Assembly: GCF_988243305.1 (NCBI RefSeq) | Contig: NZ_OZ547136.1 | Reading direction: 5' to 3' (one strand) | Length of the DNA stretch: 64,000 bases | Part shown: one piece after another, positions 3,985-52,408 of the stretch | Layout: the number at the start of each line of letters is the position of its first letter | Numbering within the stretch: the first letter of the stretch is position 1 | Made by a program: the position numbers and the translations under genes | The notes under the pieces: generated by a model | What the model was told of the DNA's origin: nothing | What the model saw: only the letters and a program-made list of their open reading frames with translations | Database searches by the model: none

Positions 3985-4073
3985 GTCTTACTCATTCACT
4001 CACCAGACTTCATTCCAATGACGTCAGCCTGAACAGGGCTGGCGTTTTCGTTTATAAACCAAAAGGAAAAACG

Positions 4074-4919
4074 ATGATGTCAGATATCACAATCTCCCGC
4101 CTGGAAGTGGTCAACGGACATACGGACATTATCTGCTCCACCTCAGTCAGCCACATTCTGGCTGTGCGAAAGACTACACTGCTGCAAATCGACACACTTA
4201 TCCGGCAACTGACTGAAATATCAGCAATGACAGAAAGTATTGGCGGTAAAACCGCACTGGACTGGGCCATGAAACAGGATTTTCGCTGCGGCTGCTGGCT
4301 CATGGATAAACCTGATACAGCAATGAAAGCTATCACCCGCAATCTCGATCGCGAAATCTGGCGTGACCTGATGCAATGCTCCGGGATGCTTTCCTTAATG
4401 GATGCACAGGCCCGTGATACATGGTACCGATCACTGGAGTACGATAATTTTCCGGAAATCAGTGAAGAGAATATTCTGAGTACGTTTGAGCAGCTACACC
4501 AGAATAAGGATGAAGTGTTTGAGCGAGGAGTGATCAACCTCTTCAGAGGGTTGAGCTGGAATTACAAAACCAATTGCCCCTGTAAATTTGGCAATAAAAT
4601 TATCGTCAACAATCTGGTGAGGTGGGACCGGTGGGGATTGCATCTTATCACCGGGCAACAGGCAGATAGACTTGCCGACCTGGAAAGAATGCTGCATCTG
4701 TTCAGCGGCAAACCGATCCCCGACAACAGGGAAAACATAACTATTCATCTGGACGAACATATCCGGTCTCTTCAGGGAAAAGAATGCTATGAAGATGAGA
4801 TGTTCATTATTAAATACTTTAAGAAGGGCTCTGCGCACATCACGTTCAGGAAGCCAGAACTGGTTGACAGACTGAATGATATTATCGCAAAACACTATCC
4901 TGATATGCTGGCAGTATAG
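4074..4919 (+). CDS. Hypothetical protein (281 aa), island cargo next to serX; possibly DUF4942-like
   Basis: AAGGAAAA RBS before ATG 4074; long ORF with lower GC than core; no catalytic motif recognised. Confidence 0.6.
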   Translation: MMSDITISRLEVVNGHTDIICSTSVSHILAVRKTTLLQIDTLIRQLTEISAMTESIGGKTALDWAMKQDFRCGCWLMDKPDTAMKAITRNLDREIWRDLMQCSGMLSLMDAQARDTWYRSLEYDNFPEISEENILSTFEQLHQNKDEVFERGVINLFRGLSWNYKTNCPCKFGNKIIVNNLVRWDRWGLHLITGQQADRLADLERMLHLFSGKPIPDNRENITIHLDEHIRSLQGKECYEDEMFIIKYFKKGSAHITFRKPELVDRLNDIIAKHYPDMLAV

Positions 4920-5026
4920 CTTTGCCAGTATGCTCAAAGATCGGAAATTGTCCGATAAGATATGATCGTGGGGCATATAAACCGGTTTCAGATGGCATAC
5001 CCGGTGGCATACTGTCTGGAAGGATA

Positions 5027-5060
5027 AATAAAAAAGCGCATGTTAAACAATAACATGCGC
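5027..5060 (-). terminator. Rho-independent terminator of serX
   Basis: Perfect 10-bp inverted repeat GCGCATGTTA/TAACATGCGC with 5-nt loop, followed on the minus strand by a T-tract, just downstream of the tRNA 3' end. Confidence 0.7.
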
Positions 5061-5068
5061 TTGTAATC

Positions 5069-5156
5069 TGGCGGTGAGGGGGGGATTCGAACCCCCGATA
5101 CGTTGCCGTATACACACTTTCCAGGCGTGCTCCTTCAGCCACTCGGACACCTCACC
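5069..5156 (-). tRNA. serX: tRNA-Ser (GGA), serX
   Basis: Reverse complement reads GGTGAGGTGTCCGAGTGGCTGAAGGAGCACGCCTGGAAAGTGTGTATACGGCAACGTATCGGGGGTTCGAATCCCCCCCTCACCGCCA: 88 nt, long variable arm, CCA end. Confidence 0.95.
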
Positions 5157-5350
5157 AAATTGTTGTTCCTGTCTTGCTGGAACGGGCGCTAATTTAGGGA
5201 AATCATGACCTGAGGTCAACAAACTTTTTTAAAAAATCGCGCGTTTATTCAAACTTCAATCAATATGCAGTTTTAATAAGCGAAATCTGCTTTTTTTGCC
5301 ACCGACCACGGATTTGTTATGCTGGTGGCTTTTGTAGATCATAACGATAA

Positions 5351-6328
<978 letters not shown>

Positions 6329-47491: not shown

Positions 47492-47502
47492 GGGGAGATA
47501 AA

Positions 47503-48456
47503 ATGCGTTTCAGTACCCAGATGATGTACCAGCAAAACATGCGCGGCATCACCAATTCTCAGGCAGAATGGATGAAGTACGGCGAACAGATGTCGACGGG
47601 TAAGCGAGTCGTTAACCCTTCAGATGATCCCATTGCTGCATCACAAGCTGTTGTTCTCTCCCAGGCACAGGCGCAAAACAGCCAGTACACGCTGGCGCGT
47701 ACTTTCGCCACTCAAAAAGTGTCACTGGAAGAGAGTGTACTTAGCCAGGTCACCACCGCTATCCAGAATGCTCAGGAAAAAATTGTCTACGCCAGCAATG
47801 GCACCTTGAGTGACGATGACCGGGCCTCGCTGGCTACGGATATTCAGGGGCTTCGTGACCAGTTGCTGAATCTGGCGAACACCACTGATGGTAACGGGCG
47901 CTACATTTTTGCCGGTTATAAAACAGAAACTGCGCCGTTTAGTGAGGCAGACGGCGAATATGTTGGCGGAGCAGAAAGTATTAAACAACAGGTCGATGCT
48001 TCGCGTTCGATGGTGATAGGGCACACGGGTGACAAAATTTTCGACAGTATTACCAGCAACGCGGTAGCGGAACCAGACGGTAGCGCTTCTGAAACCAATC
48101 TTTTTGCCATGCTGGATAGCGCCATCGCAGCCCTGAAAACGCCGGTCGCGGATAGCGAAGCGGATAAAGAAACCGCCGCTGCGGCACTGGATAAAACCAA
48201 CCGCGGACTGAAAAACTCGCTGAACAATGTGCTGACTGTTCGCGCGGAATTAGGCACGCAGCTGAACGAACTGGAGTCGCTGGATTCATTAGGTAGCGAT
48301 CGCGCTTTAGGGCAAACGCAGCAGATGAGCGATCTGGTTGATGTGGACTGGAATGCAACTATTTCATCTTACATCATGCAGCAAACGGCATTGCAGGCAT
48401 CGTATAAAGCATTTACCGATATGCAGGGATTGTCGCTCTTCCAGCTCAACAAATAA
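47503..48456 (+). CDS. flgL: Flagellar hook-associated protein 3 FlgL
   Basis: 317-aa ORF. Confidence 0.95.
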   Translation: MRFSTQMMYQQNMRGITNSQAEWMKYGEQMSTGKRVVNPSDDPIAASQAVVLSQAQAQNSQYTLARTFATQKVSLEESVLSQVTTAIQNAQEKIVYASNGTLSDDDRASLATDIQGLRDQLLNLANTTDGNGRYIFAGYKTETAPFSEADGEYVGGAESIKQQVDASRSMVIGHTGDKIFDSITSNAVAEPDGSASETNLFAMLDSAIAALKTPVADSEADKETAAAALDKTNRGLKNSLNNVLTVRAELGTQLNELESLDSLGSDRALGQTQQMSDLVDVDWNATISSYIMQQTALQASYKAFTDMQGLSLFQLNK

Positions 48457-48496
48457 TTTCGCTTTAAAACATATCATGAAACTGGGTATGTTTTGT

Positions 48497-48533
48497 CTGC
48501 CCGCTCTGGGATCGCCGGGGCGGGCATTTTTTT
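48497..48533 (+). terminator. Rho-independent terminator after flgL
   Basis: GC-rich hairpin GCCCGC...GCGGGC followed by T7. Confidence 0.7.
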
Positions 48534-48602
48534 GCCTATTTTGTATTGTTGGTTAGCAAGGATGCCATTCGATGAATTTTAATATGTTGATTCAAAGATG
48601 AA

Positions 48603-48630
48603 ATAAAAAAGCCCTGGCAGTTACCAGGGC
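48603..48630 (-). terminator. Rho-independent terminator after rne
   Basis: Hairpin GCCCTGGCAGTTACCAGGGC followed on the minus strand by a T-tract. Confidence 0.75.
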
Positions 48631-48650
48631 TTGATTGCTTTAGCTAATTA

Positions 48651-51600
48651 TTACTCAACAGGTTGCGGACGCGCAGGAGCGGCAGAGGCATGATGCGTTG
48701 CCGTATGACCACCTGCGGCACCTTTGCCTTCGAAAGCAAAAGTAGGGCGCTGCCAGTCACTGTGACGCGGTGCCTCCGGAACATATTCCGGTGCCGGAGC
48801 GCGTGTCATTGGCGCGGTAGCGTGGTTATGCTCAACGGTGACCTCAGGTTTAACCGCGGCTACCGTTTCAACTTCTGCTGCGACTTCAGCGACGACTGGC
48901 GCGGCAGGTTGAGCAACAACTTCAGGTTCAGCAACCACAACCTCAGCAGTTTCGGCAACTTCTTCAATATCAGCCGTCTCTTCCTGCGGTTCAACCACCG
49001 GTTCTGCGTGTTCTGCAACTTCCTGGGCTACGGCAACATCAGACTCGGTAATCACCTGCGGCTGTTCAGTTACCGCGGCGGCAATCACTTCAGGATGCGT
49101 AGTTTCAACCACTTCAGGTTGCGGTTCGGCAACCTGAACGGGGGCTTCTACAACTTCAGCCACTTCTTCAACAACCGGTGCGCTAACAACAGGTTCGACA
49201 GCGGCGGCGACAGGGACCTCAGTCACCATCGGCTGCACTTGTACTTCTTCCTGTTCGCGCTGCTCTTCGACCTGTACATCTTGCGGACGTACAATTGGAT
49301 AGCGGATCCAGACTTTGCCAGAGGCCAGTTCCGGAGATGCGCACGCTACGGTCAAAGGCATTGGCGATTGGGTTGGATAACGCTCGTCACGATAGCGACG
49401 ACGACGCTGACCACTCACGCGCAGGTGACGAGGCGAGCGGCGAGAACGACGCGGCATGCCACCGTTGTCACGGTTATCGGCATTGTTCTCTTCTTGCTGT
49501 TCTGGTGCAGCTTGCGCTACGACTGGCAGCGGGACTTTCACCAGTTCTGTGCGTGGAGCTGGCGCTTCCTGAACAATTGGTTCGGCAGCGACAGTTTCTT
49601 CAACCACCGGTGCGACTACCGCCTCTTCGGCTACGCTTTGCTCGTAACGCACTTTCTGATTGAGCTGACGCTGTTTACGACGCGGCTGAACCGGACGTAC
49701 ACGTTCTTCCTGTTCAGTTTCCTGAACAGATTGCTCTTCAACATTCAGCGCCTTCGCTTCTTGTTGCGCCTGACGTTTATCATCGTTACGGCGGCGGCTA
49801 CGTTCACGACGCGGCGCTTGCTGCTCGTCGGTGGTACGTGCTTTTTCCGTTACCTCAGCCTGCTGACGGCTCTCACGCGTCTCGGCAGTCTGCTGCTGTG
49901 CCTGGCGACGATTACGACGGTTTTCTTCGCGATTATCGCTGCCTTCAGTACGTTCACTACGGGTGTCGCGGCGCTCATTACGGTCACGGCGGTTGTTCTG
50001 ACGAGGCTTGCGACGATCCTGTTGACGTTCCGGTTTCGCTTCTGCTTTCGGTGCTGGTTGCTCGGCCGGTTTGGTTTCTTCACCACCGATGAACAGCGCT
50101 TTCAGTGCGCCGAAGAAGCGGCTCAACAACCCTGGTTGTGCAGGAGATGCTGGTGTTGCCGTTGCAGCTTTAGGTGCTGGGGCTACAACAGGCGCGGCAG
50201 GTTCAGCTGGGGTTGGAGCTGGCGGCACATCCGGCATGGCAAAGGTTGCCAGCGCAGGTTGTTCAGGACGCTTACGTTCAGCGAACTCTTCTTCAGACGG
50301 CAGCGCCATCGCTTCTTCATGCAGCTTCGGCAGCATGTAGCTTAAGGTTGGAGTTTCTTCCCCTTTACGCACGCGCAGCACATGGTAGTGCGGGGTTTCC
50401 ATCTGATCGTTTGGCACAATCACACAGCGCACGCCGTCCTGACGAGTTTCAATCGCATTCACTGCAGAACGTTTTTCATTCAGCAGGTAAGACGCGATTG
50501 GCACAGGAACAATGGCGTGAACTTCCTGAGTGTTCTCTTTCAGCGCTTCTTCTTCGATCAGACGCAGAATAGAGAGCGACAACGATTCGTTGTCACGCAC
50601 GGTACCGGTACCGGAGCAGCGCGGGCAGACGTGATGGCTGGATTCACCCAGTGATGGGCTCAGACGCTGACGGGACATTTCCAGCAGGCCAAAGCGAGAA
50701 ATATGGCTGATTTGAATACGCGCCCGGTCCTGACGCACCGCTTCACGCAGACGGTTTTCTACCGCACGCTGGTGGCGTACTGGCGTCATGTCGATGAAGT
50801 CGATAACAATCAGGCCGCCGAGGTCACGCAGGCGCAGCTGACGAGCAATCTCATCGGCAGCTTCGAGGTTGGTGTTAAACGCGGTTTCTTCGATATCGCC
50901 GCCGCGGGTCGCGCGTGCGGAGTTGATGTCGATGGCGGTTAACGCTTCGGTGCTGTCGATAACAATGGAACCACCGGATGGCAGACGAACTTCACGCTGG
51001 AAGGCGGACTCAATCTGTGACTCGATCTGGTAGTGGCTGAACAGCGGGATCTCGCCGGTGTACAGTTTGATTTTGCTGCTGAAATCCGGGCGACCTAATG
51101 CAGCGATATGCTGGCGTGCCAGTTCGAGCACTTTCGGGTTATCGATAAGGATTTCGCCGATGTCCTGACGTAAGTAATCGCGGAATGCGCGAACGATTAC
51201 GTTGCTCTCCTGATGAATCAGGAACGGAGCTGGGCGGCTTTCAGCGGCTTTTTTGATGGCTTCCCAGTGTTTCAGACGGAAGCTTAAATCCCATTGCAGC
51301 GCCTCAGCAGATTTGCCGACGCCAGCGGTGCGCACGATAAGCCCCATGCCTTCCGGCAGTTCAAGGCTCGCCAGTGCTTCTTTTAATTCGGTACGGTCGT
51401 CGCCTTCGATACGACGAGAAATGCCACCCGCGCGCGGGTTGTTCGGCATCAGAACCAGATAGCTACCCGCCAGACTGATAAAGGTGGTTAATGCCGCGCC
51501 TTTGTTGCCGCGCTCTTCTTTATCGATCTGAACAATGACTTCCTGACCTTCACGCAACACATCTTTAATGTTGGGACGACCATGAGCACTGTAGTTAGCA

Positions 51601-51836
51601 GGGAAATATTCGCGGGCAATTTCTTTTAGTGGGAGGAAACCGTGACGTTCAGCGCCGTAATCAACAAAAGCAGCTTCCAGACTCGGTTCAATGCGGGTGA
51701 TTTTACCTTTGTAGATGTTTGCCTTTTTCTGCTCGTGCCCTGGACTTTCGATATCCAGGTCATACAGACGCTGCCCATCTACAAGGGCAACGCGCAACTC
51801 TTCCTGCTGAGTTGCGTTGATTAACATTCTTTTCAT
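48651..51836 (-). CDS. rne: Ribonuclease E
   Basis: 1061 aa; [32 protein letters not shown]-terminus; Arg/Pro/Glu/Ala-rich low-complexity C-terminal half. Confidence 0.96.
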
Positions 51837-52197
51837 CGTAACTTACTCATTATTCTTACATTGACGACTAAGCTGCGGGCAAAGTAACGCCTTTCCGGGT
51901 GTGAACCGATGGCCTCGTGTCTAGTCGCGTCGCCAACCTCACGGTTATCGTCAGCTCAAAGAGGCGCAGAGTGTCGGTTGCCCGTTTTTCATGCGGAAAA
52001 ACAGCGCAATTATCAAAGAAACAGACTGGGTATTACTCTCCAGAAATATTTCCATCTACCGGTAAGGACTGCAACCCGCAGCCCGCTAACTGCCTGAAAG
52101 ATCAATACGTCTTACGCCATTGCTGCGTGGATGATCGGTCGGGCAAAATGGGTTATTCCGTAAAATTTCTTGTTTTAACAAGGATGGACACGGAAAC
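51837..52197 (-). promoter_or_regulatory. rne 5' untranslated leader (autoregulatory in K-12)
   Basis: Long non-coding region upstream of rne start, divergent from rluC; extent taken from K-12 knowledge and is approximate. Confidence 0.6.
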
Positions 52198-52408
52198 GGC
52201 CTCATTATTCCACTGCAAGCCTTGTTATAGCAAGATGACTTTTACCATTTATCACCCGCTTACTCACAGTTTTTTCACTTCTTGCTGGTGATTGGTTTAA
52301 TAACCATCAATAAAGTGATCACGTAGTGAAGTAATAAGGTGCAAAACTAAATATAAGCATAGAAAAATGAGTGGCGCGAATCCTGTTGGCTAATTAGAAT
52401 CGCCCACC

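Follow-up and report, generated by a model that had tools for sequence, protein, structure and literature searches.

The strand opposite the 3' half of rne, the gene encoding ribonuclease E, is free of stop codons for 560 codons in the E. coli DNA investigated here, a stretch of 64,000 nucleotides from contig NZ_OZ547136.1 (RefSeq assembly GCF_988243305.1) that is referred to below as the window. The question raised by this locus is whether the open frame represents a gene embedded antisense to rne or a by-product of the sequence that it opposes. From the analyses described here, the 560-codon plus-strand ORF is judged, with a probability of about 0.93, to be a non-coding frame -1 "shadow" of rne, a by-product of its tail, and it is probably not translated into a functional protein.

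The features of rne and its immediate surroundings are as follows.
48651..51836, minus strand: rne, ribonuclease E, 1061 amino acids (ORF listing; Pfam S1, RNase_E_G, RNase_E_G_Thio and PNPase_C)
51861..52197, minus strand: rne5 autoregulatory 5' UTR element (Rfam RF00040, 260 bits, E = 1.3e-81)
48654..50342, minus strand: rne codons 499-1061, the Leu/Ser-poor disordered C-terminal scaffold half, without TTA, CTA or TCA (codon counts)
49287..49370, minus strand: enolase-binding microdomain, residues 823-850 (matches the RNase E peptides of PDB 3h8a and 5ohg)
48663..48773, minus strand: PNPase-binding microdomain, residues 1022-1058 (Pfam PF12111 PNPase_C, 62.8 bits; PDB 3gcm and 9qh0)
48609..48632, minus strand: terminator-like hairpin of rne, with a T-run on the minus strand only

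The N-terminal half of the protein comprises an S1 domain (PF00575, 48.7 bits), the RNase E/G catalytic domain (PF10150, 330.4 bits) and a thioredoxin-like small domain (PF20833, 108.5 bits), all with Pfam scores above the curated cut-offs. The C-terminal half is the scaffold of the RNA degradosome, a natively disordered region with short microdomains that bind the membrane, RNA, RhlB, enolase and PNPase. No difference from this known scaffold is seen here, and both the enolase site (residues 823-850) and the PNPase site (about residues 1021-1061) were recovered by sequence match, the PDB peptides 3h8a/5ohg matching residues 813-850 and the peptides 3gcm/9qh0 matching residues 1004-1061. The gene order, flgK-flgL / rne / rluC, is the same as in K-12. 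The rne tail is 99.9% identical to that of strain 2012C-4221 and 97.0% identical to that of K-12, and rne is annotated in 5425 of 5426 E. coli genomes. Judged by its sequence, the allele in the window is an ordinary E. coli variant, and the protein encoded by the sense strand is the canonical RNase E of this species. In an Rfam search of positions 47500-53000 at a permissive threshold, the only matches beyond rne5 were two at chance level, both in the flgL-rne spacer.

The coordinates and length originally given for the antisense ORF proved to be exact.
48663..50345, plus strand: 560-codon antisense ORF with a TTG start, codon-aligned with rne and judged to be non-coding (ORF listing)
48645..48647, plus strand: in-frame TAA in the 3' flank of rne, the upstream limit of the open stretch
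50343..50345, plus strand: TAA that ends the antisense ORF, the complement of rne Leu498 TTA

Between the bounding TAA codons, at 48645-47 and 50343-45, 565 codons are open. The ORF lies in frame -1 with respect to rne, its start being 12 nt from the rne stop codon (48663-48651; modulo 3 = 0). Because the ORF is codon-aligned with rne, antisense stops are possible only opposite the sense codons TTA and CTA (Leu) or TCA (Ser). There are 11 such codons in rne, and every one is positioned at or before codon 498. Codons 499-1061 include 15 leucines and 20 serines (35/563), none of which is encoded by TTA, CTA or TCA. The other phantom ORFs that had been noted in this region are indeed present (78-132 aa), but they are not special, a similar number being found in the N-terminal half of rne.

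The description of the tail as rich in Arg, Pro, Glu and Ala is accurate: residues 530-1061 contain 15.0% Ala, 14.1% Glu, 12.6% Val, 11.1% Pro, 10.2% Arg and 8.5% Gln, such that Val and Gln are also high. For 563 codons, 14.3 antisense stops would be expected in an average gene and 5.0 given the Leu/Ser content of the tail; the observed number is zero. At window-average codon frequencies the probability of 563 open codons is 5e-7, and the next-longest antisense-open run among the 54 genes of the window is 210 codons. With the amino acid sequence of rne held fixed, the probability of zero stops is 0.006 with window-wide codon usage, 0.02 with that of the rne N-terminal half and 0.057 with that of rne itself, and the median expected antisense-open run is 240-300 codons versus the 563 observed. 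In the E. coli lineage, the length of the ORF is largely, albeit not fully, accounted for by sense amino acid and codon usage, and the complete lack of stops in the E. coli tail needs codon choice or chance besides composition. The original attribution to biased composition holds insofar as composition lowers the number of expected stops, but the cause is more specific, namely a codon-aligned frame opposite a Leu/Ser-poor tail, and approximately five stops are still predicted. GC-richness was considered as a cause and rejected: GC3 is 0.45 in the tail, lower than the 0.57 of the N-terminal half, and A3 is higher in the tail, where A-ending codons occupy 17% of the four-fold sites versus 10% in the N-terminal half.

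The tail, in which Ala, Glu, Val, Pro, Arg and Gln predominate and Leu and Ser are scarce, offers few places for an antisense stop, because only 15 Leu and 20 Ser are found in 563 codons. Well-adapted codons (CTG, TCT, AGC) are also favoured by rne, and in most E. coli TTA, CTA and TCA are absent from these 35 positions. The mechanism by which frame -1 antisense ORFs arise has been described by Mir et al. 2012 (PMC3454372) and by Moshensky & Alexeevski 2019 (bioRxiv 10.1101/724807); the former cites Merino 1994 and Silke 1997 for it.

The ORF is interrupted in E. albertii and in every other member of the Enterobacterales sampled. The matching rne region contains 5 antisense stops in E. albertii, 3 in Citrobacter, 5, 6 and 2 in Enterobacter, 6 in Superficieibacter and 11 in Klebsiella. 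These are located at scattered, mostly lineage-specific positions, and their numbers are close to that predicted by composition alone (about 5). When evolution over the E. coli to E. albertii distance was simulated under selection on the sense frame alone, 6 stops (range 3-10) were gained versus the 5 observed. When the longest antisense-open run was compared with a per-species null for 80 rne loci, the median P was 0.70, and 2.5% of the species fell below 0.05. Across these 80 species, the run length is fully accounted for by the null, with no excess. The run length follows GC content and codon bias, and in Pseudomonas it extends over the entire gene (1055-1099 codons).

Within E. coli the frame is also variable. 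An alignment of the rne C-terminal region across strains, proposed with the original prediction as a check, revealed both antisense stop polymorphism and in-frame indels. In 3 of 20 distinct E. coli alleles, a Leu codon has changed synonymously to one that places a stop in the antisense frame (TTA571 twice, CTA581 once), and the full ORF is kept in the other 17. The three variants trim only the C-terminal 70-80 codons of the ORF.
50124..50126, minus strand: Leu571 TTG; E. coli MS1685, E. coli ETEC1748 and E. albertii have TTA here, giving an antisense stop
50094..50096, minus strand: Leu581 CTG, which is CTA in E. coli isolate K12a (NZ_OZ259269.1), giving an antisense stop

A search with the E. 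albertii tail as query, aimed at the 13 "E. coli" records of greatest divergence, placed all 5425 records in a single identity band and so did not single these out.

The indel polymorphism that had been anticipated between strains takes the form of a 609-nt and a 12-nt deletion, both in-frame, which remove 203 and 4 codons, respectively, from the rne tail. The relevant repeats are given below.
49599..49610, minus strand: 12-nt direct repeat CCGGTGGTTGAA (PVVE, codons 743-746), bounding the 609-nt deletion of strain GN4738 on the left
48990..49001, minus strand: second perfect copy of CCGGTGGTTGAA (codons 946-949), at the right end of the 609-nt GN4738 deletion
48873..48896, minus strand: imperfect tandem GTCGTCGCTGAA / GTCGCAGCAGAA (VVAE VAAE, codons 981-988)
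49079..49134, no strand assigned: weak 24-nt tandem repeat, 2.3 copies, 70% matches (TRF)
50012..50035, no strand assigned: weak 12-nt x 2 tandem array (TRF)

One unit of the GTCGTCGCTGAA / GTCGCAGCAGAA tandem is missing in strains 20AR0192 and SMS-3-5, in which rne encodes 1057 residues. Short repeats are thus located at the junctions of the observed in-frame indels, and slippage or recombination between them may have produced these differences between strains. The enolase-binding site is absent from one rne allele. The claim that the region is repetitive at the DNA level stands with respect to short dispersed direct repeats, which are enriched (62 repeated 9-mer pairs in the tail, compared with 24.1 ± 7.2 in codon-shuffled sequence, z = 5.3, and with 15 in the N-terminal half), but not with respect to strong tandem arrays. 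A tandem-repeat explanation was rejected, since TRF detected only the two weak arrays in the C-terminal half.

The synonymous sites of rne give no indication of constraint in the tail, for which sense dS is not below that of the N-terminal half either within E. coli (0.076-0.098 versus 0.077-0.096) or against E. albertii (0.58 versus 0.41). The dN/dS ratio of the C-terminal half is 0.09-0.13 in the sense frame and 0.5-0.9 in the antisense frame. In an OLGenie-style conditional test against E. albertii, dNN/dNS was 0.36 and dSN/dSS was 0.71, both less than 1, and the former value is below that of a crude BLOSUM-weighted simulation of sense-only selection (P ≤ 0.003). Ratios below 1 were rejected as a sign of antisense coding. 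Indeed, the flanking-gene controls gave 0.56 and 1.03, which are not significantly different from the tail (Fisher P = 0.16 and 0.24), and a pair of Photorhabdus RNase E tails, in which the antisense frame is filled with 17-18 stops, gave similar conditional ratios of 0.45 and 0.61. The under-prediction of the simulation for dNN/dNS is treated as a limitation of the model rather than as a signal.

The start signals of the ORF are poor.
48675..48695, plus strand: the only Shine-Dalgarno-like motif near the 5' end of the ORF, AGGAG at 48675-79, followed after 10 nt by an in-frame ATG at 48690 and then by a second ATG at 48693
48498..48526, plus strand: terminator-like hairpin of flgL, made up of a 12-bp stem and a T-run and located upstream of the antisense ORF

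No Shine-Dalgarno sequence lies at a usable spacing from the TTG at 48663, and the AGGAG motif is the complement of the rne Ala-Pro codons GCT CCT. In a consensus scan, which is weak evidence either way, nothing resembling a promoter was detected from the flgL terminator up to the ORF. The CAI-like score of the ORF, 0.629, lies at the bottom of the range for the genes of the window (0.627-0.789) and below the median of 0.686 for the aligned-antisense frames of other genes. Codon usage and ribosome-binding-site scoring, the other checks proposed at the outset, thus both gave poor values. The translation is aberrant in composition (14.5% Arg, 13.2% Phe, 12.5% Leu, 4.6% Cys and 0.4% Lys) and has no match in Pfam, and none of three start variants of the ORF was present in an exact look-up among about 15 billion proteins. 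Homologous protein calls are few, and all derive from contigs in which frameshift errors or an N gap interrupt rne. In public protein collections these calls are grouped into clusters with 268, 23 and 1 members, and one entry, named "ribonuclease E, partial", is a chimera that passes from the sense to the antisense frame. The openness that is not conserved, the segregating stop variants, the undiminished sense dS, the poor start signals and codon adaptation, and the lack of a family match all bear out the original view of the ORF as spurious.

It could be argued that all or part of the ORF is a young, E. coli-specific overlapping gene that is translated from a transcript arising by flgKL read-through or at a weak promoter located between flgL and rne, similar to embedded antisense genes reported in EHEC such as pop opposite ompA. 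With the protein sequence held fixed, a complete lack of stops lies in the tail of the distribution (P of 0.006-0.057), and 17 of the 20 sampled alleles retain the full ORF; set against this are the 5 stops in the sister species E. albertii, the 2-11 stops in other enterics, and the stop polymorphism and the 4- and 203-codon deletions within E. coli. The conditional dNN/dNS of 0.36 is below the simple simulation, but the conditional ratios resemble those of the non-coding controls and sense dS is not reduced. AGGAG does lie 10 nt before the ATG at 48690, yet the flgL terminator is positioned upstream with no promoter-like site between it and the ORF, and both the composition (13% Phe, 14.5% Arg, 4.6% Cys, 0.4% Lys) and the codon adaptation are poor. 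Although reports from E. coli and Pseudomonas describe the translation of antisense ORFs that span hundreds of nucleotides (PMC7103648, PMC8850804), "Ribonuclease E" is missing from the parent-gene lists in the searchable supplements of a survey of E. coli antisense overlapping genes (bioRxiv 10.1101/2020.11.18.388249). A young gene is, accordingly, highly improbable. It would be most surprising if, in E. coli sensu stricto, part of the ORF, the candidate being that from the AGGAG-preceded ATG at 48690, were translated at a low level from flgKL read-through. If so, it would be a very young overlapping gene, restricted to this lineage, in which maintenance of the open frame is just starting, and no embedded antisense gene known in E. 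coli would be longer.

Another explanation places the cause in the sense gene, for whose benefit the TTA, CTA and TCA codons would be kept out of the tail by selection, the open antisense frame being a side effect of that selection and not of chance. Such selection might act against rare Leu/Ser codons that are decoded slowly, rne being essential and well expressed, or against A/U-rich motifs in its mRNA. The codon adaptation of rne is the best in the window, with CAI-like scores of 0.80 for the N-terminal half and 0.77 for the tail (otherwise the maximum is 0.789), but that same N-terminal half tolerates 11 such codons. Frame -1 ORFs are ascribed to the codon bias of highly expressed genes by Silke 1997 and Mir 2012 (PMC3454372), and the same point is made by Moshensky & Alexeevski (bioRxiv 10.1101/724807). 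Relatives in which rne is equally essential nevertheless carry 2-11 such codons in the tail, A-ending codons in general are not avoided there, and E. coli is polymorphic for synonymous TTA and CTA variants. We regard selection of this type as very unlikely.

As a non-coding shadow of rne, the ORF shares with the frame -1 ORFs of Merino et al. 1994, Silke 1997 and Mir et al. 2012 (PMC3454372) a codon-aligned frame, stops only opposite TTA, CTA or TCA, and a well-expressed sense gene; its length, like theirs, is explained by sense codon and amino acid usage, albeit largely rather than fully. It differs from them in that it is driven mainly by amino acid composition rather than by codon bias alone and is confined to the low-complexity half of the gene. 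Antisense ORFs of >1800 bp opposite dnaK, which formerly bore the annotation "NAD-specific glutamate dehydrogenase" (Pfam PF10712; bioRxiv 10.1101/724807), are similar in being very long and antiparallel to a housekeeping gene, in displaying Ka/Ks evidence of selection on the sense frame only, and in sometimes being entered in databases as protein. Whereas the dnaK ORF recurs in many genomes (282 cases) and gained a Pfam family (bioRxiv 10.1101/724807), that opposite rne is present at full length only in E. coli, with no family and a handful of fragmentary database calls. The pop/ompA gene pair of EHEC (PMC7103648) and olg1 and olg2 of Pseudomonas (PMC8850804) also involve a long ORF embedded wholly antisense to an annotated gene, but these have Ribo-seq, promoter and phenotype evidence together with reported purifying selection, whereas the comparative tests for the rne ORF were negative.

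The antisense ORF is a real but ordinary finding, a known kind of artefact. It provides a caution for annotation, in that gene callers emit it only where rne is broken by sequencing or assembly errors or by scaffold gaps, and a worked example in which a Leu/Ser-poor disordered region, and not codon bias or GC content alone, leads to an exceptionally long frame -1 ORF. It also demonstrates the need for a cross-species null before "stop-codon avoidance" is claimed. The repeat-mediated in-frame indels are of some biological interest, but for rne itself and not for the antisense ORF; the rne allele without the enolase-binding site suggests natural variation in the composition of the degradosome.

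The gene encoding ribonuclease E, rne, is located in the gene order flgK-flgL / rne / rluC, which is the E. coli arrangement. The features of the region are as follows.

flgK-flgL, plus strand, beside rne
48651-51836, minus strand, rne, 1061 amino acid residues
48663-50345, plus strand, antisense ORF of 560 codons with a TTG start
51861-52197, rne5 5' UTR element
rluC, plus strand, beside rne

The domains identified with Pfam in the rne product are S1, RNase E/G, and thioredoxin-like, together with a C-terminal PNPase-binding motif. The 3' half of the gene is 99.9% identical to that of E. coli 2012C-4221 and 97.0% identical to that of K-12, and the region is present and annotated as rne in 5425 of 5426 complete E. 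coli genomes. The catalytic half (codons 1-498, 50343-51836, minus strand) is extremely conserved, the 11 compared E. coli alleles being identical in amino acid sequence, with ∼1 difference relative to E. albertii (dN/dS of 0.002 despite a dS of 0.08-0.41). The C-terminal tail, codons 499-1061, evolves faster, with 12-16 differences from K-12-like alleles within E. coli. The terminators of flgL (48498-48526) and rne (48609-48632) form a convergent pair, and the rne hairpin is so palindromic that each strand was flagged, with a T-run only on the minus (rne) side. In certain E. coli lineages, SMS-3-5 among them, the flgL-rne spacer (48457-48650) carries an inserted toxin-antitoxin pair, a GNAT-family acetyltransferase toxin with an antitoxin of the DUF1778/TacA type, that is missing from the window and from K-12. 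The flgK annotation of E. coli EC444 (NZ_CM128674.1) is that of a pseudogene interrupted by an internal stop.

The coordinates of the antisense ORF in the original prediction were exact according to the ORF listing, and the entire stop-free stretch extends for 565 codons between TAA triplets at 48645 and 50343. The ORF is codon-aligned with rne, the 12-nt distance between its start and the stop codon of rne being divisible by three. In this frame an antisense stop can occur only opposite a sense TTA, CTA, or TCA codon. There are 11 such codons in rne, all at or before codon 498, and the stop of the antisense ORF is the complement of the TTA of Leu 498. The biased composition that had been proposed is indeed observed. 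The tail is rich in Ala, Glu, Val, Pro, Arg, and Gln, and contains only 15 leucines and 20 serines, encoded by CTG, TTG, CTC, TCT, AGC, AGT, and TCG. At window-average codon frequencies, 14.3 antisense stops are expected in 563 codons (probability of none, 5e-7), a value that drops to 5.0 given the actual Leu/Ser content of the tail; the formula applied here is the Leu/Ser formula that Moshensky and Alexeevski (2019, bioRxiv 10.1101/724807) use for such ORFs. When synonymous codons were resampled on the real rne protein with three codon tables, the median longest open run was 240-300 codons, and runs of at least 563 codons arose with probabilities of 0.006 (window codon usage), 0.023 (rne N-terminal usage), and 0.057 (rne's own usage). 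On the basis of these values, composition accounts for most of the openness, and the remainder is a modest tail event. In the other genes of the window the longest aligned antisense run does not exceed 210 codons. GC content was rejected as the cause, since GC3 falls from 0.57 in the N-terminal half to 0.45 in the tail. Several other phantom ORFs of 78-132 residues do overlap the tail, as had been suggested, but the N-terminal half holds about as many.

Across 80 rne loci, from Enterobacterales to Betaproteobacteria, comparison of the longest aligned antisense run with a per-species null revealed no excess openness (median P of 0.70; P < 0.05 in 2.5% of species). The tail contains 5 antisense stops in E. 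albertii, 3 in Citrobacter, 5, 6, and 2 in Enterobacter, 6 in Superficieibacter, and 11 in Klebsiella, in agreement with the expectation of about 5. The codons at which these stops fall are scattered and for the most part specific to one lineage; of the five E. albertii stops, four are derived. A simulation under sense-only selection to the E. coli-E. albertii distance gained 6 stops (range 3-10) versus the 5 observed. In high-GC species (Pseudomonas and a betaproteobacterial MAG) the codon-aligned frame contains no antisense stop over the whole of rne, 1040-1099 codons, a length nearly twice that of the E. coli case and fully expected from codon usage bias.

Within E. coli, the antisense frame is stopped by a synonymous leucine change in 3 of 20 distinct tail alleles: codon 571 is TTA instead of TTG in MS1685 and ETEC1748, and codon 581 is CTA instead of CTG in isolate K12a. 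An antisense protein under constraint would be expected to lower sense dS, because sense third positions are antisense first positions. Sense dS is not lower in the tail, either within E. coli (0.076-0.098 versus 0.077-0.096 in the N-terminal half) or relative to E. albertii (0.58 versus 0.41). For the tail, dN/dS is 0.09-0.13 in the sense frame and 0.5-0.9 in the antisense reading. OLGenie-style conditional ratios (dNN/dNS = 0.36, dSN/dSS = 0.71) might naively be taken as antisense constraint, but controls with stop-ridden antisense frames behave similarly. Flanking genes gave 0.56 and 1.03 (not significantly different from the tail; Fisher P = 0.16 and 0.24), and a pair of RNase E tails from Photorhabdus, with 17-18 stops in the antisense frame, gave 0.45 and 0.61. 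CAA/CAG and CCT/CCG exchanges dominate the SS class; in the NS class, changes at the first sense position predominate, chiefly Ala/Thr and Val/Ile. A crude simulation reproduced dSN/dSS (P of about 0.13) but failed for dNN/dNS (P ≤ 0.003), a mismatch regarded as a limit of the model and the sole loose end.

With respect to gene-like features, the TTG start has no spaced SD sequence, only an immediately adjacent AGG. The ATG at 48690 is preceded, 10 nt upstream, by an AGGAG that is complementary to the Ala-Pro codons GCT CCT. The flgL terminator stands upstream of the ORF, and a consensus scan between the two revealed no promoter-like site. The codon-usage check was in keeping with a spurious frame: the CAI-like score, 0.629, is at the bottom of the range for the window's genes (0.627-0.789) and below the median of other genes' antisense frames (0.686). 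The composition (R 14.5, F 13.2, L 12.5, C 4.6, W 3.0, and K 0.4%) mirrors the Glu, Ala, Val, Pro, and Gln codons of the tail, and Pfam gave no match.

Three start variants of the exact ORF were looked up among about 15 billion proteins and none was present, and a homology search of 5.8 billion clusters returned five. P0001 (416 residues, 268 members) derives from a scaffold with 100 Ns inside rne. P0002 (391 residues) derives from an assembly of 4.6 Mb with 11 indel errors in rne and with most of the neighboring genes fragmented; P0003 is another such fragment. P0005 (39% identity) presumably represents the corresponding ORF in a different species. P0004, named "ribonuclease E, partial" at NCBI and 760 residues long, is encoded by contig LVRK01000076.1 (GCA_001621075.1), 4001-6282, where rne nucleotides 1-1728 are followed by the reverse complement of nucleotides 2218-1652 to the contig end. 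Because of this foldback, translation begun in the sense frame continues in the open antisense one, giving a chimera of RNase E residues 1 to about 602 and about 160 antisense-frame residues. At the junction (corresponding to 50109-50121 and 49619-49631 on the plus strand of the window) two blastn alignments overlap by 13 nt, of which only about 8-9 nt are truly shared (TCTTCGGC). The foldback probably arose as an assembly artefact and escaped notice for lack of stops in the antisense frame. Judging from the sources with indel errors, Ns, or a foldback, the antisense ORF is called only where rne itself is damaged.

The tail had also been described as repetitive at the DNA level. Short dispersed direct repeats are enriched: the tail has 62 pairs of repeated 9-mers, compared with 24.1 in codon-shuffled versions (z = 5.3) and with 15 in the N-terminal half. 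Tandem repeats are minimal, and tandem repetitiveness was rejected. The indel polymorphism anticipated between strains was found, all of it in frame. In E. coli GN4738 (NZ_CM177114.1), a urinary isolate, codons 743-945 (609 nt; within 48990-49610, minus strand) are deleted exactly between two perfect 12-nt copies of CCGGTGGTTGAA at 49599-49610 and 48990-49001. The resulting RNase E of 858 residues lacks the enolase-binding microdomain, residues 823-850 (PDB 3h8a/5ohg), and the allele may represent either natural variation of the degradosome or a collapsed assembly. Strains 20AR0192 and SMS-3-5 have lost one unit of the imperfect tandem GTCGTCGCTGAA / GTCGCAGCAGAA, and the E. albertii tail differs by two insertions, one of 27 nt with GCTCAACYT on its flanks and one of 3 nt, and by a deletion of 6 nt. 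Such indels are present but not common, since 38 of 40 evenly spaced E. coli records have the reference length.

According to Merino (1994) and Silke (1997), as relayed by Mir et al. (2012, PMC3454372), long -1 ORFs follow sense codon usage, especially in highly expressed genes. By Ka/Ks, such ORFs, including those of >1.8 kb opposite dnaK that gave rise to Pfam PF10712, are not under negative selection (bioRxiv 10.1101/724807). Where genuine embedded antisense genes have been claimed in E. coli and Pseudomonas (PMC7103648, PMC8850804), the claims are based on evidence of expression and selection, which the rne ORF lacks. The E. coli antisense survey did not list "ribonuclease E" as a parent gene in its searchable supplements, a weak negative given that the files are possibly incomplete. 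Expression of some part of the antisense ORF, as a very young product restricted to E. coli, is highly improbable. The original interpretation of the ORF as spurious is supported, with the refinement that the codon-aligned frame geometry and the paucity of Leu and Ser are the actual mechanism by which the frame remains open. The antisense ORF is of the classical frame -1 shadow kind (PMC3454372), a phenomenon already known in kind.
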